From an uncultured SAR86 cluster bacterium (GTDB lineage: Bacteria > Pseudomonadota > Gammaproteobacteria > Magnimaribacterales > AG-339-G14): a DNA stretch of 64,000 bases. Location of the stretch: contig CACAWS010000004.1 of assembly GCA_902536295.1 (NCBI GenBank), forward strand, positions 6,568-70,567. Reading direction: 5' to 3'. The notes under the pieces were generated by a model, which worked only from the letters and a program-made list of their open reading frames with translations, made no database searches and was not told the origin of the DNA. This document shows positions 3,124-47,759 of this stretch, in pieces. Each line of letters opens with the position of its first letter. The stretch's first letter is position 1. The translations under genes and the position numbers were made by a program.

Positions 3124-4425
3124 TTAATCTAAGTTAATCCAACTACCATGAAATCCAAAAGGCACTCTTGATGGCAATTGAATTCGCGCTAGAGGCTCTT
3201 CGGAAAAATTTTCTGCATCTATAATTATGAACTCGCTTTTATCTACTTCTTGATCATATACAAATCCAACAACATATCCTGAATCTTCTGATGTTTGATC
3301 TATTTTCGGAATAAAAACTGGTTCAGCCCCTTTTTTATGTTCACCTAAATGATGAACTTCATTTCGATCTTTCAAGAAATCATATTTAAATAAATTATTT
3401 AATGCACCATCGTTTAAGATATAACTAAATCTATACTCTTTTCCTTCTAAATCAGGATGAATTCTTGCAAACTCCATTGGTCTGTCATCAAGAAGTTTTT
3501 CAACACAAGTTTCTTTGATTGTGTCAATTTCCCATCTTGTCAAAAAGGGTTTTTTTCCAAAGGGGAGAGGGTTATTAAAATCAAAAAGTTTGTCGTATCT
3601 ACAAAAATCTAGAATAACTTTACCTGAACTGTCTTCATAGGAATTTACTACATGAAAAAGAAAGCAATTAGGCACTTCAATCCATTTTATTTCATTTGTA
3701 TTTCTATTCAAAAGCCCCAACTTTGAAGAGTAATTATCATCCCAAACTACTGGATAATCCGAGGCGTTTTCATCTTTATTTCTTCTGCTAGTATTAAATG
3801 TGACCGGAAGGTCAAAGATAAGAACATAATTATTTGTAATAGCACAATCATGAATCATTGGTTTTGAATTCAATACAATTGGAAGATCAGTCGTAATTTC
3901 TCCTGAACCATCGACAACACGGTAATGCACTTGGTTAACATCTGATAAATATTCTGAAAAATCATAGCTTATAGCGTGTAATTCGTTTTTAGAAGAATCG
4001 AATTTTGGATGTGCAGTAAACCTTTTATTATCATTCTTTGGGAATGGAATTTGATCGGTGAAATTTAAATCATTATCTAGAATAACCGGAGAAACTCCTC
4101 CTTCAACTAATGCATAAATTTTTCCTGCATGTTTTAAAACATGAGTATTAGGGCCAAAGCCAAAAGATGATTCCACATATCTGTTTTTATACCAATGAGC
4201 CTTTCCATCTTGTATTTTTAAACCGTGGATCATACCGTCTCCAAAAAAAGGGTGATAATTCTTATGATCAATTGGCTCCTTAGGATTGGGTCCATTTCTC
4301 AAGAATAAACCATTTAATTCCATAGGTATTTCTCCAACAATATTTAGATTGTTGGAGGAAGTTTCTTCAACGGGATACCAGTTACCTTTTAAGAATACAT
4401 TTTCACTTTCTCTAAAATTTTTCAT
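3124..4425 (-). CDS. carotenoid oxygenase family protein (CCD/RPE65/apocarotenoid oxygenase-like)
   Basis: 433 aa. Four His residues sit in the contexts expected for the family iron site (FTAHPKFD, MIHDCAIT, FLFHVVNSYE, FGFHGSWI). The start codon overlaps the mdh stop (ATGA). Confidence 0.8.
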   Translation of the reverse strand: MKNFRESENVFLKGNWYPVEETSSNNLNIVGEIPMELNGLFLRNGPNPKEPIDHKNYHPFFGDGMIHGLKIQDGKAHWYKNRYVESSFGFGPNTHVLKHAGKIYALVEGGVSPVILDNDLNFTDQIPFPKNDNKRFTAHPKFDSSKNELHAISYDFSEYLSDVNQVHYRVVDGSGEITTDLPIVLNSKPMIHDCAITNNYVLIFDLPVTFNTSRRNKDENASDYPVVWDDNYSSKLGLLNRNTNEIKWIEVPNCFLFHVVNSYEDSSGKVILDFCRYDKLFDFNNPLPFGKKPFLTRWEIDTIKETCVEKLLDDRPMEFARIHPDLEGKEYRFSYILNDGALNNLFKYDFLKDRNEVHHLGEHKKGAEPVFIPKIDQTSEDSGYVVGFVYDQEVDKSEFIIIDAENFSEEPLARIQLPSRVPFGFHGSWINLD

Positions 4426-5417: not shown

Positions 5418-6955
5418 AAAATTTCCGGTTTAAAAATATTCCTCTCTGAAGTGCATATCACTTCTCCCTTGGTGCCTAATAATTCCAGTTCTGTCATTTT
5501 TTTTAATAAACTTTGATCGCCTAAAATGTTAGCAATGAATTGGGATTTGTCATCCAATTCACCAATTACGATACCATACTCTAAATTTTTTCTCCCCTGT
5601 ACGATTGTATAAGATGTTATCTTACCAAGACCGTTAGGTGTTTGATTAAAATTTTTAATTTCTCTTGAATCTATTTCTTTTTGGAGCTTTTGGAAGTTTT
5701 GATTCCAGTCAATCTCAGGAGGAGCTTTCGAGGAAAAAATATTAATTGCATGTTTAGTCAAAAACCAACTGTTAGCCGTAATCATTCCGTATTTGTTCTG
5801 ATTTTTTCTTAACTTTCTTACCATCTCTGATGAAGAAAACATTGTGTATGCATTTCCTGGCCCTCCAAAATAAGGAAGTCCTCCAGTAACTGTAAGCGGG
5901 CGATTATCGTCTAAATTTAAAGATAACTCTTTCATAGCAATCTGAACCGCAGAAGGGAAACAAGAATAAATATCAAAATAAGATATTGAATCCATTGAAA
6001 CTTGTGCCTGTGAGAGAACCTCTTCTCCACATTTTTTTATTGCTGGAGATTCGATAAGTTTCGGGCGTTTAGAAACATTCCAAATATCATTCAAAATACA
6101 TGAACCATGCAAATAAATTTTTTTCTTTTGAGAAATATTCAATTCTTTAGAAAGTTTTTCAGACATGATTATCATAGATGAAGCCATATTTACTCTGATC
6201 ATAGAATTTAAATATTTTGTGTAGGGAAAGCCTACTAATCTATTCGAATCTGTAACTTTTTCGATTTCCTCTGGCGATCGATATTTTGGAAACCATGAAT
6301 TTGAATTTTTTTCTGCTACTTTAGAAAATTTACTAAATAACTCCGAACACTCTTTTAAATGCTCTTTACTAGATTGAGATTTTTCTGATCTTAATGCATT
6401 TGCAAAAATAGGATATACATTTGAGGGAAGATCCATAAAGTGTTTTTTTTCATCTGACGAGAAACCTTCGTCGTTTATTCCAACAATTTCTGGGCTTCCT
6501 CCTGGATGATCCTCCCAGTCTAAGGGTTTTCCTGCTTTAAGTTTGGATATCATCGTTTGTAAAACCTCACCGCCAGAAATTAATGCGCATTGAACTTCAT
6601 TGTTATAGATTCTTTTAGAAACTTCTTGAATTAAAACTTGAGGGGCATTGCCTCCCATTCCCGAATATAATTCAAAGATATCTTTATTTATGTTCAATTT
6701 TTTTGCTAGCGACCTAGGAAAATTACTATATCCAAAATTTGATTGATTGGTCGCTGTAGAAAAATCCACAGAAAATCGTACAACACCGACAGCGTCTATA
6801 TAACTATGAAGATTACTTATTCCTGTATCTTGAAATGATAGTTCGCTAGCATTTACTAAGAAAGAAAGGGGATCCGGACCGTCTTCTTTCCTTCTATCTA
6901 TAATATCTGCAACTCCAACAATTACTGGGGTATTTCCTGGAATATTTAAAGTCAT
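5414..6955 (-). CDS. thiolase-like protein (SCP-x/lipid-transfer-type), with a C-terminal extension
   Basis: 513 aa. The general thiolase-fold pattern is present (GGNAPQ..., YSCFPSAV, TGGLPYFGGPGNAY). It lacks a clear classical Cys-His-Cys signature by eye. The last ~90 aa look like an extra small domain. The stop overlaps the mdh start (ATGA). Confidence 0.5.
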   Translation of the reverse strand: MTLNIPGNTPVIVGVADIIDRRKEDGPDPLSFLVNASELSFQDTGISNLHSYIDAVGVVRFSVDFSTATNQSNFGYSNFPRSLAKKLNINKDIFELYSGMGGNAPQVLIQEVSKRIYNNEVQCALISGGEVLQTMISKLKAGKPLDWEDHPGGSPEIVGINDEGFSSDEKKHFMDLPSNVYPIFANALRSEKSQSSKEHLKECSELFSKFSKVAEKNSNSWFPKYRSPEEIEKVTDSNRLVGFPYTKYLNSMIRVNMASSMIIMSEKLSKELNISQKKKIYLHGSCILNDIWNVSKRPKLIESPAIKKCGEEVLSQAQVSMDSISYFDIYSCFPSAVQIAMKELSLNLDDNRPLTVTGGLPYFGGPGNAYTMFSSSEMVRKLRKNQNKYGMITANSWFLTKHAINIFSSKAPPEIDWNQNFQKLQKEIDSREIKNFNQTPNGLGKITSYTIVQGRKNLEYGIVIGELDDKSQFIANILGDQSLLKKMTELELLGTKGEVICTSERNIFKPEIL

Positions 6956-41725: not shown

Positions 41726-43732
41726 ATGAGATATGTATTTGCGTTACTATTTTTTTTATTCCCTATTAACCTGCTTTCAGAAATAGAAGAGACACTAATA
41801 GTGACGGAATCAAATTGGTTTTTTTTACCTTCTATTGACGAAATAAAGCAAGAGGAGATCGAGTTTTATAATCCTCATCATTTTAAGGAATTATTAAATC
41901 TATCCTCTGGAGTTTGGATTAGTCGAGGTTCCGGTCAAGAAAGTTTAATCTCTTTAAGATCACCTGTCCTGACTGGAGCAGGAGCTTGCGGATCTTTTCA
42001 GATTTTAGAGGACGGCATTCCAATCAGGCCTGCGGGCTTTTGTAATGTTAATAATCTTTTTGAGGTTGCTGGAAATTTGGCCTCTGAAATTGAAGTGGTT
42101 AAAGGCCCTTCGAGTTCAATGTTTGGTGGGAACGCTTTGCACGGAGTTATAAATGTTAAATCTATAAATACAGTAGGGAATAGTAATTTAAATTTTCAAG
42201 TAGACAAAAATGATTCAATAAGAAGTAAATTTATCTACAAAAGAATAAAAAATACTGCAGTTGGATTTGACTTCGCAAAAGATAAGGGATTCAGGAATCG
42301 GTCTGGATTTGATCAGCAAAAATTTGTCATAAAAAACTCTAAAGATATTGAAGATTGGTCATTACAAACATTAATTAGTTTTACTAACTTGAACCAGGAG
42401 ACAGCAGGTTATATTAATTCATATTTATATCCTACAAGAATAGATAATATTAATCCTGAGGCATATAGAGATGCCAAATCCTTAAGAATAAAGACAGAAA
42501 TTTCAAAAACTCTTGAAAAATATAATGTTCATTTCATACCTTACTTAAGATTTAGTTCTATGGAATTTATCCAGCATTATTTGCCTGGAAAACCTATCGA
42601 AAAAAATGGCCAGAAAAGTACAGGTCTTAAGTTCAAGTTATCAGAATTAGAAATAAATGATAACTTGTTTGAAATAGGTAGTCAGATCGAAATAGCCTTC
42701 GTTAACCTAGATCAGTTTCAACCTGATACATTGAATTCTCCAAATGCTTTTAACAATGCAGTTAGGCCACAGGGCTACCACTATGACTTTGAGGTAGTAA
42801 CAAGTTTTCTTGCTGGTTTTATATCTCATGAATATGAATTTAAGAATAAATACAATTTTTTTTCGAATTTACGTCTCGAATATCTTAATTACAATTATGA
42901 CAATTTAATGTCTGACGGTCGTTTAAAAGACGATGGAACTTCATGCGCTAGAGGCGGTTGTTTTTACTCTAGACCAGCAGATTCTGAATTAAGTTTTATG
43001 GATTATTCTTATAGATTAGGACTCTCAAAGTTTACTAACATTGGCAAGGTTTTCATTCAATTTAGTAAGGGGCATCGGCCTCCACAGATTAATGAATTAT
43101 TTAGGCTTCAAAAATCTCAGGTTCTTGCAGATTTAGATTCAGAAAAAATAGACTCAATTGAAATAGCTTTGGAAAACAATGGAAATGATTTTTTTAATAA
43201 ATTAGTTTTTTATTATTCAAAAAAGAAAAATTATATATTCAAAGATTCTGACTCTAATATGGTGCTAGGTGGCAAGTCAAGGCACAAAGGAATTGAATTA
43301 AAAGGGGCAAAAATTTTAAATAATTATTTTTCAATCAAATACGCTCTTAATTTAGCAGGACACTACTATGATTTTATCAATCAAGACATAGGAGTGGTAT
43401 CGGGAAATGAAATAGATACTAGCCCAAACATTTTTGGCAGTATTTTTATAAATTTTAATGCTTTCAACAAATTAAATTTTGAGTTAGAGCAAGAATTTAT
43501 GGATCAATACTTTACCGAGCCCTCGAATACTTACGTTTATAAAGGTCACAACCTAACTAATCTGAGAAGTTCTTATGAATTAAGTGATGATATAAATTTA
43601 AATCTGAGTATTTTGAATCTTTTTGATAAAGAGTATGCTGAGAGGGCAGACTACTCCTCATTTACTGGAGAAAGATTTTTTCCAGGAATTCCTTTAAAGT
43701 GGCGTTTAGGAATTAATTACAAATTCAATTAA
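41726..43732 (+). CDS. TonB-dependent outer-membrane receptor (substrate unknown)
   Basis: 668 aa with a signal peptide, a TonB-box-like ETLIVTE, a plug domain, a beta-barrel and a C-terminal aromatic residue (..INYKFN). Confidence 0.85.
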   Translation: MRYVFALLFFLFPINLLSEIEETLIVTESNWFFLPSIDEIKQEEIEFYNPHHFKELLNLSSGVWISRGSGQESLISLRSPVLTGAGACGSFQILEDGIPIRPAGFCNVNNLFEVAGNLASEIEVVKGPSSSMFGGNALHGVINVKSINTVGNSNLNFQVDKNDSIRSKFIYKRIKNTAVGFDFAKDKGFRNRSGFDQQKFVIKNSKDIEDWSLQTLISFTNLNQETAGYINSYLYPTRIDNINPEAYRDAKSLRIKTEISKTLEKYNVHFIPYLRFSSMEFIQHYLPGKPIEKNGQKSTGLKFKLSELEINDNLFEIGSQIEIAFVNLDQFQPDTLNSPNAFNNAVRPQGYHYDFEVVTSFLAGFISHEYEFKNKYNFFSNLRLEYLNYNYDNLMSDGRLKDDGTSCARGGCFYSRPADSELSFMDYSYRLGLSKFTNIGKVFIQFSKGHRPPQINELFRLQKSQVLADLDSEKIDSIEIALENNGNDFFNKLVFYYSKKKNYIFKDSDSNMVLGGKSRHKGIELKGAKILNNYFSIKYALNLAGHYYDFINQDIGVVSGNEIDTSPNIFGSIFINFNAFNKLNFELEQEFMDQYFTEPSNTYVYKGHNLTNLRSSYELSDDINLNLSILNLFDKEYAERADYSSFTGERFFPGIPLKWRLGINYKFN

Positions 43733-43740
43733 AATTTCAA

Positions 43741-45111
43741 GTGAGTCATTCTAAAATCTCTGAAGAATTGCCTAGTAATATTGAAAGCGTTTCTAGTCCA
43801 GAAACTTTATCAATATGGGGATTAGCATGGCCTTCGATTTTAGCCAATATTTTATTTGCTGCAGCAGGAGTGGTTTCGATTAAAGCTGTTGGTGTGCTTG
43901 GAACTGAAGCAGTCGCAGCCGTAGGAACAGGTCAAAGAATTTTATTTGTAATTCAATCAATAATCATGGCGGTTTCTACTGGAACTGCAGCGCTGGTAGC
44001 CAGAGCTTTTGGCTCTAGTAATTATCAAGAATCGTCACAGGTGCTATTAGACTCGCTATGGATTGGTTCCGCACTAAGTATGGTTGCCACCTTATCGATG
44101 TGGTTTTATGGAGAATCAATTATTTCCTTGTTCGGTTTAGATCCTGAGTCTAAAAAATTGGCTGTTATCTACATTAAGTACACTATGTTATTTTCAATAA
44201 CTTTTTCTTGCTCATTTATTTTCAGCTCTGCTTTAAGAGCTGCCGGCGATGCCAAAACTCCCTTAGCAATTATGATTTTCCAAAATCTCTTAAATATATA
44301 TTTACTAATTGGATTAGTTAATGGGCAATTTGGATTTCCAAAATTGGGAGTTCTGGGAGCCTCATATGCTTGGGGTATATCATTTACAGTCGGCACGATC
44401 ATCTATCTGATTCTTTGGCTTTCAAAAATAACAATTATTCCTGTTCCCGATATAAGAGGAATAATTTATAAAAGAGTTAGGTCAATAATAAGAATTGCGA
44501 CACCTGCCACCTTAGAGTCTGGTGTTTTTCAATCAGGGTTGCTATTTTACTTTTGGATTATTTCCTTGTATGGAACTGAGCCAAGCGCAGCGTATAACAT
44601 TGGAATAAATATTCTAATGCTCTCTTTTATGATTGGTCAGGGATTTTCTATCGCTGGGGCAACACTTACAGGGCAATTTTTAGGAGCTAATAACCCAAAA
44701 GAAGCAAAAAGAAGTGGTTGGAGATCTGCAGGATTGTCGATTATTTCTATGGGCGTTGTGGGGCTTTTAATTGCAATGTTTTCTAATGAAATATCAAGAT
44801 TTCTTGTTGACGATGATGAAGTTGTGAGACTAACAGTCATATTTGTATGGTTTCTAGGATCCATGCAACCTTTGATGGCAATAGAGTTTGCGATAGGGGG
44901 TGCTTTGAGAGGAGCTGGAGACACGACATCACCGTTAGTAATAACTTTAATAGGTTTAATATTCTTTAGATTGTCTATCGCTTTGTCATTTTTATTATTT
45001 GATTTACCTGTTGAATACATTTTTGCAAGTTTAATGATTGATTATCTTGTTAAAGCTATTTTATTCGCCTATTGGTTTAATTCTGGTAAATGGATAAAAA
45101 TTAATATTTAG
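43741..45111 (+). CDS. MATE family efflux transporter
   Basis: 456 aa, 12 TM segments, GTG start. The pattern is typical of the MatE repeat. Confidence 0.8.
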   Translation: MSHSKISEELPSNIESVSSPETLSIWGLAWPSILANILFAAAGVVSIKAVGVLGTEAVAAVGTGQRILFVIQSIIMAVSTGTAALVARAFGSSNYQESSQVLLDSLWIGSALSMVATLSMWFYGESIISLFGLDPESKKLAVIYIKYTMLFSITFSCSFIFSSALRAAGDAKTPLAIMIFQNLLNIYLLIGLVNGQFGFPKLGVLGASYAWGISFTVGTIIYLILWLSKITIIPVPDIRGIIYKRVRSIIRIATPATLESGVFQSGLLFYFWIISLYGTEPSAAYNIGINILMLSFMIGQGFSIAGATLTGQFLGANNPKEAKRSGWRSAGLSIISMGVVGLLIAMFSNEISRFLVDDDEVVRLTVIFVWFLGSMQPLMAIEFAIGGALRGAGDTTSPLVITLIGLIFFRLSIALSFLLFDLPVEYIFASLMIDYLVKAILFAYWFNSGKWIKINI

Positions 45112-45185
45112 TTATTTATTTATATTTTTTATCTTTTTTAATGTATTATTTACGTAATTATTAATAATTATCTGGGAGAGATATT

Positions 45186-45887
45186 ATGGAATATGTTCTA
45201 GCTACCAATGATTATGTTGGTATTTCTTTTTGGCTAGCCACAGCTATAATGCTTGCTTCTACTGTATTTTTCTTCATTGAAAGATCTGACGTCAAAGGTA
45301 AGTGGAAAACTTCTTTGACTGTTGCGGGTTTAGTTACTGGTATAGCTTTTTGGCATTATTTGTACATGAGAGACGTATGGGTAATGGTTGGTGACACACC
45401 TACTGTTTACCGATACATTGATTGGTTAATCACTGTTCCTCTTCAAATAATTGAATTTTATTTAGTTATTGCTGCTGTTACAGCAATTAGCGCTGTCATT
45501 TTCTGGAAGCTTCTAACCGCTTCAATTGTGATGTTGGTTTTTGGATATCTTGGAGAAACTGGATTAATGGATGTAACCCTTGGTTGGGTGATTGGAATGA
45601 TCGCTTGGCTGTACATCATTTATGAAATCTTCTTTGGTGAAACAGCTGCTGCTAATGCTGGCAGTGGAAACGCAGCCAGTCAACAAGCATTTACAACAAT
45701 TAAATGGATTGTGACTGTAGGTTGGGCAATATACCCATTGGGATATGCAATTGGATATTTCGGTGGCGGAGTAGATGCTAATTCGTTGAATATAATCTAC
45801 AACTTGGCTGACTTAATTAACAAAACAGCGTTTGGTTTAGCTATCTGGGCTGCTGCTAAAGCAGATTCAGAAACTTCCTACGCTTAA
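45186..45887 (+). CDS. proteorhodopsin (light-driven proton pump), blue-absorbing type (Gln105)
   Basis: 233 aa, 7 TM segments. In standard proteorhodopsin numbering: H75 (FWHYLYMR), R94/D97 (YRYIDW), Q105 and E108 (VPLQIIEF), D227/K231 (NLADLINKTAFG). A GGGAGAG SD lies upstream. Confidence 0.93.
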   Translation: MEYVLATNDYVGISFWLATAIMLASTVFFFIERSDVKGKWKTSLTVAGLVTGIAFWHYLYMRDVWVMVGDTPTVYRYIDWLITVPLQIIEFYLVIAAVTAISAVIFWKLLTASIVMLVFGYLGETGLMDVTLGWVIGMIAWLYIIYEIFFGETAAANAGSGNAASQQAFTTIKWIVTVGWAIYPLGYAIGYFGGGVDANSLNIIYNLADLINKTAFGLAIWAAAKADSETSYA

Positions 45888-45900
45888 AGGAAAAAAACCA

Positions 45901-45935
45901 AAAAAAAACTCCGGCATTAAGCCGGAGTTTTTTTT
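45901..45935 (+). terminator. rho-independent terminator after proteorhodopsin (A-tract / stem / T-tract, potentially bidirectional)
   Basis: AAAAAAAA-CTCCGGC-ATTAA-GCCGGAG-TTTTTTTT. Confidence 0.85.
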
Positions 45936-45938
45936 GGA

Positions 45939-45971
45939 GCTTCTTGTGAATCTCCCCCTTACACAAGAAGC
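45939..45971. repeat. perfect 10-bp inverted repeat GCTTCTTGTG ... CACAAGAAGC with a 13-nt C-rich loop
   Basis: Read directly, immediately after the rhodopsin terminator. No T-tract follows on either strand, so it is not a canonical terminator. Confidence 0.4.
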
Positions 45972-46099
45972 AATATAAGATATAAAAAAAATCTATTAAG
46001 GTCAAAACTTTTATTAATTTTTTTTAACTTTGCGTTTCATATTTTTTATTTAAAGTAAAGGTTGATTCAGATTTTCATAATATGTAAATTAATAGGTCT

Positions 46100-46175
46100 G
46101 CGATTGTAGCTCAGTTGGTAGAGCGCGACCTTGCCAAGGTCGAGGCCACGGGTTCGAACCCCGTCAATCGCTCCA
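46100..46175 (+). tRNA. tRNA-Gly (anticodon GCC), CCA encoded
   Basis: GCGATTG acceptor, GCTC-AGTTGGTA-GAGC D-arm, CGACC-TTGCCAA-GGTCG anticodon arm, ACGGG-TTCGAAC-CCCGT T-arm and CAATCGC-T-CCA. Confidence 0.92.
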
Positions 46176-46191: not shown

Positions 46192-47121
46192 ATGAAACTA
46201 TTTTTAATTTCTTTATTACTCATCTTAAGTTTCTATGTACATAGCGATGCTTGTAAACATTCTAAGTGGGGAGAAGGTGATGAATTAGGTAATGCGAACC
46301 TACTTACAAAAGAATTAGTTCTTGAAGCTTCAGATTTAATTAAAACTGGGAATGTATATAGTTTAGGCTTAGTCATTGATCAGAATACTCCAGCCTATCC
46401 TCCAAGATCTTTAAGTTTGAGTGTAGTTCAGCCTACTCAACAGTTTGGCAAATTAGGCTTGCCCAATGCGACTTACAACGACGACATGTTTCATGGCTGG
46501 TTAGGCATAGGTTCTCAAATTGATGGTCTTGGACACATCGGAGGCACCGATGCAATTTTTTATAATTGCCATGATGGTAAAGAATTCTCTGAAACAACTG
46601 GGTTAACCAAGTTAGGAATTGAAAAAATTCCGCCAATTGTCACAAGAGGTGTTTTAGTAGACATGGCTAGATTCTTTAAAAAAGATTTTCTAGAGGCTGG
46701 AGAAACTTTCGATGTTGATGACGTGATTGAAGCTCTTAAACTTCAAGACGTCACAATTGAAGAAGGGGATGTAGTTATATTTCACACTGGATGGACCGAA
46801 GCAAAATATTTTTCTGACCCTGAATTATGGGGTTCAGGAACGCCAGGGCCTACTGGAGAAGTTTCTTCATTCCTAGCTTCAAAAAATGTTGTTGCAGCCG
46901 GAGCAGATACTTGGTCATATGATGTTGTTCCTCCAATTGATTTAAATGAGCCTTATCCAGGACATCAAATACTTTTAAAAGAGAATGGGATATATATCTT
47001 AGAAGCTATGAGTACAGGCGAGCTTGCGAAAGATAATGTTTATGAGTTTTTGTTTGTACTAGGCCAGGCTAAGGTTAGGGGGGCGGTTCAAATGATAATT
47101 AATCCTATAGCTATAAATTAG
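46192..47121 (+). CDS. secreted cyclase-family protein (arylformamidase/putative cyclase fold)
   Basis: 309 aa with a signal peptide. GSQIDGLGHIG and the FHTGW motif are consistent with the putative cyclase family. Confidence 0.55.
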   Translation: MKLFLISLLLILSFYVHSDACKHSKWGEGDELGNANLLTKELVLEASDLIKTGNVYSLGLVIDQNTPAYPPRSLSLSVVQPTQQFGKLGLPNATYNDDMFHGWLGIGSQIDGLGHIGGTDAIFYNCHDGKEFSETTGLTKLGIEKIPPIVTRGVLVDMARFFKKDFLEAGETFDVDDVIEALKLQDVTIEEGDVVIFHTGWTEAKYFSDPELWGSGTPGPTGEVSSFLASKNVVAAGADTWSYDVVPPIDLNEPYPGHQILLKENGIYILEAMSTGELAKDNVYEFLFVLGQAKVRGAVQMIINPIAIN

Positions 47122-47759
47122 GCAGAATCTAAATCATCAGCAATTGAATGATTTTTATCTCGATGACCAGCTTCATCATTTCTTACTGCAATTACGACAT
47201 CTCTAAGAGTGGCATCTTTCGGTAAATTCCAATAATTGATAGCAATGTCAGGAGCTTGAGAATTTTCTATTTGACCTTTATCAATTTCTTCCAAATATTC
47301 AGAGTAAGAAATTACAGCTTCTTCTTCAAAGTAACCAATCATTCTATGCGCAGTTCGATTAAAGAAGATATAAAGAAATGTATAAAAAGTACCGAATCCA
47401 ATTTGAGCCAAAAATATTAAAAATCTTTCGAATGTTGATGGTTGAGCAATTTCTATAAAAGTCATTAGGTGCATTCTCTCATTCTCTGCTTCTTCTAACA
47501 TTTCTCGAATCAAACCATCATCATTTTGCATTCTTCTTAAAGAGCGCAAGTGATGAATAACTCCAGCTACCATGCCAGGTACTGCGGCAACAGTCTCTAG
47601 AACAACAGCTCTATGACCGTATCTTTTTTTAAAAAGAAAATCGGCTGCATTTCTTAGAAACTTGGTAATGCTAAGGGCAAAAGAATCACTAATAGAAATT
47701 GGTAACTTATGACCAGCAATCTCATTTTTCATATTAGGTGGCAATTCTTGATTTAACAT
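47118..47759 (-). CDS. aox: alternative oxidase (cyanide-insensitive ubiquinol oxidase, di-iron carboxylate)
   Basis: 213 aa with VVLETVAAVPGMVAG, LEEAENERMHLMTF, YFEEEAVISY and RNDEAGHRDKNH. These are the four Glu/His iron-binding blocks of mitochondrial-type AOX. Confidence 0.9.
   Translation of the reverse strand: MLNQELPPNMKNEIAGHKLPISISDSFALSITKFLRNAADFLFKKRYGHRAVVLETVAAVPGMVAGVIHHLRSLRRMQNDDGLIREMLEEAENERMHLMTFIEIAQPSTFERFLIFLAQIGFGTFYTFLYIFFNRTAHRMIGYFEEEAVISYSEYLEEIDKGQIENSQAPDIAINYWNLPKDATLRDVVIAVRNDEAGHRDKNHSIADDLDSA

Follow-up and report, generated by a model that had tools for sequence, protein, structure and literature searches.

Is the proteorhodopsin (PR) gene of this SAR86 bacterium an unusual, self-contained acquisition, or an ordinary member of a known lineage? 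The gene occupies positions 45186–45887 (+ strand) of the 64-kb stretch of DNA analyzed here, which is referred to as the window. A sequence-only reading had presented it as a self-contained cassette and as a complete proton pump that departs from the classical SAR86 protein in having no signal peptide, with a blue tuning that implies clear or deeper oceanic water. Cloned in 2005, blue and leaderless proteorhodopsins of SAR86 were shown to pump protons and were crystallized in 2013. Sequence comparison gives us high confidence that the ORF is the resident PR of a gammaproteobacterium of the SAR86 group and a member of the Med12BPR-type clade; its pumping, color, topology, and retinal supply are predicted from this placement.

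The ORF proved to encode a complete proteorhodopsin, as had been proposed. It starts with ATG, encodes 233 amino acids followed by a stop codon, and matches the Pfam family Bac_rhodopsin (PF01036, E 4.5e-46) from residue 12 to residue 224, equivalent to profile positions 4–221 of 224; the seven-helix domain therefore spans the whole product of this single, DTE-type ORF. Structure alignment and motif mapping place His57, Arg76, Asp79, and Thr83 at H75, R94, D97, and T101 of standard (GPR) numbering, and Gln87, Glu90, Asp209, and Lys213 at Q105, E108, D227, and K231, with a constant offset of 18 residues. The Schiff-base lysine, Lys213, lies in LINKTAFG and is aligned to the lysine that binds retinal in GPR and Med12BPR. 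The DTE motif is found within RYIDWLITVPLQIIEF, with Asp79 as the proton acceptor, Thr83, and Glu90 as the proton donor, and the counter-ion complex comprises Arg76, Asp209, and the PR-specific His57. All proton-pump residues are thus present in the alignment to the GPR and BPR structures, in agreement with the sequence-only reading, the residue list of which follows GPR numbering and not that of the ORF itself.

The best solved relative of the window PR is PDB 4JQ6 (E 1.6e-118). This is the structure of Med12BPR, a blue proteorhodopsin that originates from 12 m in the Mediterranean (GenBank AAY68058, according to PMC11022694). The two proteins are identical at 182 of 231 positions (79%) in a gapless alignment, with the 49 substitutions located mostly in helices D–E and in loops. 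They have in common a leaderless N-terminus, the DTE motif, Q105, and a Trp at the counterpart of GPR position 152; the C-terminal tail of the window PR is two residues shorter. Blue light drives proton pumping by Med12BPR in proteoliposomes (PMC11022694). Because of this identity to a protein that holds retinal in the crystal and pumps protons, retinal binding and light-driven outward proton transport are expected for the window PR. By close homology, all-trans retinal would bind Lys213 as a protonated Schiff base and would be isomerized by blue light, with the proton passing to Asp79 in its complex with His57, Arg76, and Asp209. Glu90 would then reprotonate the Schiff base, and the net outward pumping of protons would supplement the proton-motive force.

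It is extremely unlikely that the protein instead acts as a sensor, pumps Na+ or Cl−, or is a paralogue that does not bind retinal, such as flotillin-associated rhodopsin (FArhodopsin). PR paralogues are known in streamlined marine bacteria (PMC10308929), and the FArhodopsin structures 9R21–9R23 are moderately similar to the window PR (E about 1e-68 to 1e-71). However, the window PR is far closer to Med12BPR, and it carries DTE together with Q105, whereas DTT-T is reported for FArhodopsin; nor is its motif NDQ or NTQ (motifs from PMC5864233 and PMC10308929). The Pfam survey detected no flotillin/SPFH gene flanking PR, and no transducer gene adjoins it. With the DTE-Q motif and with a MATE gene and tRNA-Gly as its neighbors, the window PR was rejected as a candidate flotillin-associated rhodopsin. 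Trp134 of the window PR aligns with GPR Phe152, a position which we take to be equivalent to xanthorhodopsin 156. A carotenoid antenna needs Gly at the xanthorhodopsin Gly156 position (bioRxiv 10.1101/2022.08.24.505090), so antenna-carotenoid binding of the ‘fenestrated’ PR/XR kind is unlikely.

As an outward proton pump, the window PR is predicted to absorb blue light at about 480–490 nm, a color set by Gln87 in VPLQIIEF. Motif mapping upheld the assignment of this residue as a blue-type Gln at position 105. Position 105 is the accepted blue/green switch (PMC9325082, PMC5864233); BPR absorbs at 488–490 nm (PMC9325082). Q105 is shared by 115 of the 120 closest proteins and by all 80 of the best genome loci, and about 80% of the proteorhodopsins at 25–125 m at Station ALOHA have Gln105 (PMC5864233). 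The PR of SAR86 BAC MED49C08, which is likened to the window PR through its published description as a blue-absorbing SAR86 proteorhodopsin, came from surface water (12 m) and showed light-driven proton pumping in E. coli; the pigment was monitored at 480 nm (PMC1175822). Its photocycle is fast, which Sabehi et al. 2005 read as an adaptation to high surface irradiance (PMC1175822). Since Q105 is the majority state and a blue PR with a fast photocycle was recovered at 12 m, the earlier suggestion of deeper water is unsupported; its other half, clear oceanic water, stands as a fair inference from Gln105.

The window PR does lack a leader. The upstream MATE gene ends with its stop codon at 45111, only 74 nt before the PR ATG, in-frame stops (TAATAA) occur at 45162–45167, 6–7 codons upstream of the ATG, and no leader-like ORF was found in any frame of this gap. 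Together with the identical start of its relatives, these observations rule out a hidden signal peptide reached through a frameshift or an alternative start, and they corroborate the claim that upstream extension is blocked by a stop. The leaderless form is, however, not exceptional. We defined the leaderless clade by three features, namely translation that begins 10–11 residues ahead of the helix A motif G-I-S-F-W, the absence of a hydrophobic leader, and a stop codon in frame upstream; the window PR has all three. The database gave a similar picture: 112 of the best 120 relatives have only 10–11 residues ahead of a G-I/V-S-F-W motif and are thus leaderless. In the set of the best 80 genome loci, a leaderless start is found at 10 of the 13 from SAR86 (L001–L008, L023, and L028, which share the window-type start), as well as in PS1, OCS116, Woeseiaceae, MED-G80, Comchoanobacter, and nine of 53 Pelagibacteraceae. 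Leaders of 26–41 residues are present at the remaining SAR86 loci of this set and in most Pelagibacteraceae, Pseudohongiella, and Puniceicoccaceae. The SAR86 relatives have kept the start codon, the Shine-Dalgarno sequence (SD), and the stops upstream of it.

Med12BPR is alike in this respect. The 235-residue chain of 4JQ6 matches the stop-bounded ORF of the SAR86 single-cell genome AG-461-A21 (L006) from Met1 to Ala235, with only four substitutions, and this ORF sits in a MATE...PR...tRNA-Gly...AOX neighborhood like that of the window PR. The crystallized protein is therefore the natural leaderless product of the same SAR86 clade and locus. On these comparisons, the absent signal peptide is a common clade character of PRs of the Med12BPR type. 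Other characterized proteins differ. GPR of SAR86 clone EBAC31A08 (PDB 2L6X, 7B03, 8CNK) has the same fold and H75/R94/D97/E108/D227/K231 set, but is distinguished by a cleavable N-terminal signal peptide of ~17–18 residues, by Leu105 (green), and by Phe where the window PR has Trp at 152 (E 1.2e-82). HOT75 BPR (PDB 4KLY, 4KNF) resembles the window PR in Gln105, blue absorption, and proton-pump residues (PMC9325082), but has a signal peptide, is nearer to GPR (~80% identity, PMC7337067) than to the window PR, and has a slow photocycle (PMC1175822). The structures of both GPR and HOT75 BPR are more distant from the window PR than 4JQ6 is (E ~1e-82). The SAR86A PR (scaffold JH611157, locus L037) comes from the same organism group, has Q105, and is 67% identical to the window PR, whereas it carries an 18-residue leader, MKFLLMMVGAVALPAFAA, and lies in another genomic neighborhood without an adjacent tRNA-Gly.

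The PR apoprotein would enter the inner membrane without a cleavable leader, with helix A serving as a reverse signal-anchor. Its N-terminal tail (MEYVLATNDY) has a net charge of −2 and its A–B loop (ERSDVKGKWK) a net charge of +2, and an N-out topology therefore fits the positive-inside rule. The acidic tail would cross to the periplasm and the basic loop would remain inside.

The neighborhood of the gene is equally conserved. As had been described, PR is bracketed by a MATE-family efflux transporter gene (43741–45111, + strand; Pfam MatE 7.6e-56, TIGR00797, synteny) and tRNA-Gly (GCC) (46100–46175, + strand; ARAGORN; Rfam 73.3 bits), which are its conserved upstream and downstream neighbors. 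A tblastn search with the window neighbors recovered the order ammonium transporter, (TonB receptor), MATE, PR, tRNA-Gly, (cyclase), AOX, enoyl-CoA hydratase, DapE-like, and malate synthase in eight of eight SAR86 genomes (L001–L008), and tRNA scans placed tRNA-Gly downstream of PR in each of them. A MATE gene upstream, with tRNA-Gly and AOX downstream, is the shared neighborhood of the Med12BPR-type clade. The closest genome loci are those of the SAR86 single-cell genomes AG-904-A06 (95% PR identity) and AG-339-G14 (94%), followed by six further SAR86 genomes at 77–91%, and the identities of neighboring proteins fall in step with that of PR (77–95%) across these eight genomes. The closest metagenome match noted is contig L116, at 98.7% identity.

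These data bear on whether PR arrived recently as a self-contained mobile cassette that inserted next to tRNA-Gly. Taken as a whole, PRs are a family known to undergo lateral transfer, and close homologues of the window PR bear other-taxon labels in MAG annotations. In addition, the gene looks monocistronic, having its own SD and terminator, and adjoins a tRNA gene. Acquisition of this kind is nonetheless very unlikely: the order MATE-PR-tRNA-Gly-AOX-ECH-dapE-malate synthase has been kept while PR and its neighbors diverged in step, and PR sits 5′ of the tRNA gene and not at its 3′ end. The Pfam survey of the window detected no integrase, transposase, or flanking repeats. The GC content (0.385) and GC3 (0.295) of PR are similar to those of neighboring genes, and no chromophore genes accompany it, so it is not self-sufficient. 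The description of the gene as a self-contained cassette was consequently dropped. With a locus syntenic across SAR86 lineages and a composition that matches its neighbors, PR is, by these signs, a resident and vertically inherited SAR86 chromosomal gene.

The expression signals claimed for this resident gene were found, with one exception that concerns the DNA beyond its terminator. The SD, GGGAGAG, was read directly at 45174–45180 (+ strand), 5 nt upstream of the ATG, and the SAR86 relatives bear GGGAGAG or GGGGAGG at this position. A bidirectional intrinsic terminator at 45901–45935 (both strands) consists of an A-run, a CTCCGGC stem, a 5-nt loop, a GCCGGAG stem, and a T-run; its 7-bp, GC-rich stem is kept in relatives by compensatory changes (CG to UA, GC to AU). 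PR would be translated from its own SD, and its transcript would end at this terminator. A consensus scan of the 74-nt gap found no promoter belonging to PR, and an alignment of the upstream region across relatives revealed conserved AT-rich blocks with no assignable −35/−10 for PR. No terminator was found in the 74-nt MATE–PR gap either, so PR may be co-transcribed with MATE.

The exception is a second perfect hairpin, which had been described as part of the PR gene. It exists as described, with a perfect 10-bp stem (45939–45948/45962–45971), but its promoter and the G·U pairs of the − strand mean that it is better read as belonging to a gene on the opposite strand. We tentatively propose, at somewhat less than even confidence, that it forms the 5′ stem-loop of a previously undescribed, ~70-nt small RNA gene that is convergent with PR, shares its terminator, is conserved in one SAR86 sub-lineage, and possibly acts as a decoy or regulator. 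The candidate (45900–45973, − strand) would comprise the 5′ 10-bp hairpin, a loop with the invariant GGGGGAGA, an A-rich linker, and the shared terminator, which is predicted to end transcripts of PR on the + strand and of the small RNA on the − strand. A sigma-70-type promoter was located by consensus scan at 45977–46005 (− strand), with TTGACC (46005–46000), a 17-nt spacer, and TATCTT (45982–45977). The 74-nt candidate has a minimum free energy of −36.5 kcal/mol (z = −7.9).

Alternatively, the hairpin could be a back-up or read-through terminator, or another structural element of the PR 3′ end, that acts on the + strand and is not a separate gene. It lies 2 nt after the T-run of the PR terminator and can form on either strand, which is compatible with such a role. 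We nevertheless regard this as doubtful, given that no T-run follows the hairpin on the + strand and given the pattern seen in an alignment of 20 distinct SAR86 sequences read on the minus strand. All have the layout TTGAC, 17-nt spacer, TAnnTT, 5–7 nt, 10-bp hairpin, A-rich linker, and terminator. The −35 TTGAC and −10 TAnnTT are invariant in all 20 sequences and precede the hairpin at a fixed distance, while the spacer between them varies freely. An 8-nt loop core is also invariant while the hairpin stem co-varies. RNAalifold predicts 22 pairs from these sequences, seven of them with compensatory double changes. Five G·U cells in the first stem pair on the minus strand only and would be A·C mismatches on the + strand.

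The distribution of the motif provides further evidence for the convergent small RNA gene. The hairpin with its invariant loop core is kept downstream of PR in L001–L005 and L008. Scanning metagenomes for the hairpin pattern yielded 64 stretches, 47 of which were discarded as high-GC matches, mostly with soil-type metagenome identifiers, that resemble unrelated coding regions. The other 17 are low-GC and each has the motif after the same terminator; PR (84–99% identity) lies immediately upstream in 16, and the seventeenth (L105) starts at the terminator. A covariance model of the candidate (R1) finds one copy in the window, and every copy found adjoins PR; it detected none away from PR, none in other taxa, and none in the Med12-like genomes L006 and L007. 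These two differ from the window in having no adjacent candidate and ~1.9 kb between PR and tRNA-Gly. Scored against Rfam, the candidate stays below the gathering threshold of every family, with the best permissive match (45900–45974, − strand) at 32.3 bits against a threshold of 70, and a gathering-score scan of the whole window returned only three tRNAs and a glutamine riboswitch. It is the invariant promoter, the covariation, the minus-strand G·U pairs, the fold, and the single PR-adjacent copy that lead us to read the hairpin as part of a convergent small RNA gene.

In its architecture, the candidate resembles generic trans-acting bacterial small RNAs: it is ~70 nt long, has a promoter of its own and an exposed loop that looks like a seed, and ends in a Rho-independent terminator that supplies a U-tail. 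The succession of a 5′ hairpin, an A/U-rich linker, and an intrinsic terminator is likewise typical of the class, and there is a weak, sub-threshold resemblance to SorX and Hrs12. It differs from generic small RNAs in its purine-rich, SD-like GGGGGAGA loop, which is unusual. When this loop was searched against the translation-start regions of the window, the best duplex (−14.5 kcal/mol) was within background (mean −9.7, 1st percentile −16.9), and no target emerged. The loop resembles, rather than complements, the PR ribosome-binding site (GGGAGAG or GGGGAGG), which makes another role conceivable: the RNA may be a decoy for binders of SD-like sites, or a regulator tied to light-energy metabolism.

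Any light-driven function of PR depends on a supply of retinal. A Pfam survey of 58 ORFs across the 64-kb window found no blh and no crtE, crtB, crtI, or crtY. SAR86 assemblies have been reported without a retinal pathway (PMC3358033), and SAR86 is listed among the rhodopsin holders that lack blh (PMC7734400). In this organism, retinal would have to be obtained by some other path than the canonical blh/crt route, whether scavenged as such or cut from scavenged carotenoids. The window encodes one protein that may do the latter, a carotenoid cleavage oxygenase of the RPE65/CCO family (3124–4425, − strand; Pfam RPE65 PF03055, E 3.2e-103) located 41 kb from PR. Its nearest NCBIfam model is the 8′-apo-carotenoid 13,14-cleaving dioxygenase, which it matches below cut-off (394 vs 675 bits), and among its closest structures in the PDB are carotenoid 9,10-dioxygenase, lignostilbene dioxygenase, and apocarotenoid-15,15′-oxygenase. 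The genome and metagenome protein collection contains over 2600 homologues of it. Our literature search found no work linking SAR86 with carotenoid cleavage. The oxygenase is the only in-window candidate for producing retinal from scavenged (apo)carotenoids, and its connection to PR is conjectural.

The missing pathway also invites the view that PR, while intact, is a chromophore-free apoprotein in this organism and works only when retinal is scavenged. Both the window survey and the published SAR86 assemblies are in keeping with this, and proteoopsin without retinal is stable (PMC11322631). We consider it improbable, as the strong purifying conservation of every retinal-pocket and pump residue across SAR86 lineages implies use of the holoprotein and the oxygenase could yield retinal from scavenged (apo)carotenoids. 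It is, in any case, a qualification of the main explanation and not a true alternative to it.

The PR of the window is thus an ordinary gene of an already-known kind, given its 79% identity to a published, crystallized pump and a leaderless start that is normal for its clade; being leaderless, blue-tuned, and compact is the norm for this SAR86 lineage. Near-identical genes are abundant in marine metagenomes, and the gene in itself adds nothing new. It is useful as an annotation anchor that marks the window as SAR86, and as an illustration of a known puzzle, namely that SAR86 has the pump but no retinal pathway. On this puzzle, the presence of a carotenoid cleavage oxygenase within the same 64 kb provides a modest lead, in the form of a concrete candidate for the SAR86 retinal source. 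To our knowledge, the regulatory RNAs of uncultured SAR86 are essentially unknown. The candidate small RNA, which is uncurated, conserved, and physically coupled to the PR gene, is the only item of this locus that is possibly new.

The proteorhodopsin gene is adjoined by a candidate small RNA gene of approximately 70 nt (45900-46005, minus strand), which converges on it and is retained next to it in 20 distinct SAR86 sequences. The -35 and -10 elements of its promoter are invariant, as is the GGGGGAGA loop of its 10-bp hairpin. In the predicted transcript, this hairpin is followed by an A-rich linker and by a terminator that also serves the proteorhodopsin gene. No Rfam family was matched by the candidate. 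The 19-base hairpin pattern also matches a recurrent high-GC sequence (containing GAGCTTCTTGAGCGTCTCCCCCAAC) found on many metagenome contigs with soil-type identifiers (the high-GC members of L081-L144, e.g. L082-L084). These matches apparently come from a coding region that is conserved but has no relation to the marine element, and they serve as a warning against scanning by pattern alone.

On the other side of the gene, sister SAR86 lineages carry an inverted repeat, TGACA-N5-TGTCA (e.g. TGACAAAATGTCA), approximately 90-100 nt upstream of the proteorhodopsin start. It lies at 5900-5920 of the related genome locus L003 and at equivalent positions in a second such locus (L008) and four metagenome stretches (L088, L090, L098, L140), and looks like an operator. 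Neither the window nor its closest relatives (L001, L002, L116, L134) carry the repeat.

A putative cyclase gene (46192-47121, plus strand) starts 16 nt past tRNA-Gly. Of the eight related genome loci, L001, L003, and L005 carry this gene, L002 keeps an 85-aa remnant of it, and L004 and L006-L008 lack it; the pattern looks like a small presence/absence polymorphism on the tRNA 3' side. The slot immediately upstream of MATE-proteorhodopsin is hypervariable. It is occupied in the window by a TonB-dependent receptor (41726-43732, plus strand) that shares only 63% identity with its counterparts in L001 and L002, compared to 86-97% for the flanking genes there, and for which no counterpart was detectable in L003, L004, or L008. 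An alternative oxidase gene (47118-47759, minus strand; Pfam E 1.7e-79) is conserved close to proteorhodopsin in all eight loci; both genes are energy-related, and we know of no functional connection between them. Elsewhere in the window, a glutamine riboswitch of the glnA-leader type (RF01739; 27234-27370, plus strand; scoring 42.8 bits, above its gathering threshold of 35) is flanked by an era-like GTPase gene and recO.

The SAR86A proteorhodopsin (scaffold JH611157, L037:5944-6672) contains the motif VPLQIIEF, placing Gln at position 105. The published description of this pigment as putatively green-tuned (Dupont et al. 2012) disagrees with the sequence on this minor point. SAR86 genomes are reported to lack retinal biosynthesis (PMC3358033). 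The window encodes a carotenoid cleavage oxygenase of the RPE65 family (3124-4425, minus strand); its sequence does not reveal cleavage specificity, and this enzyme may provide a route from scavenged (apo)carotenoids to retinal.
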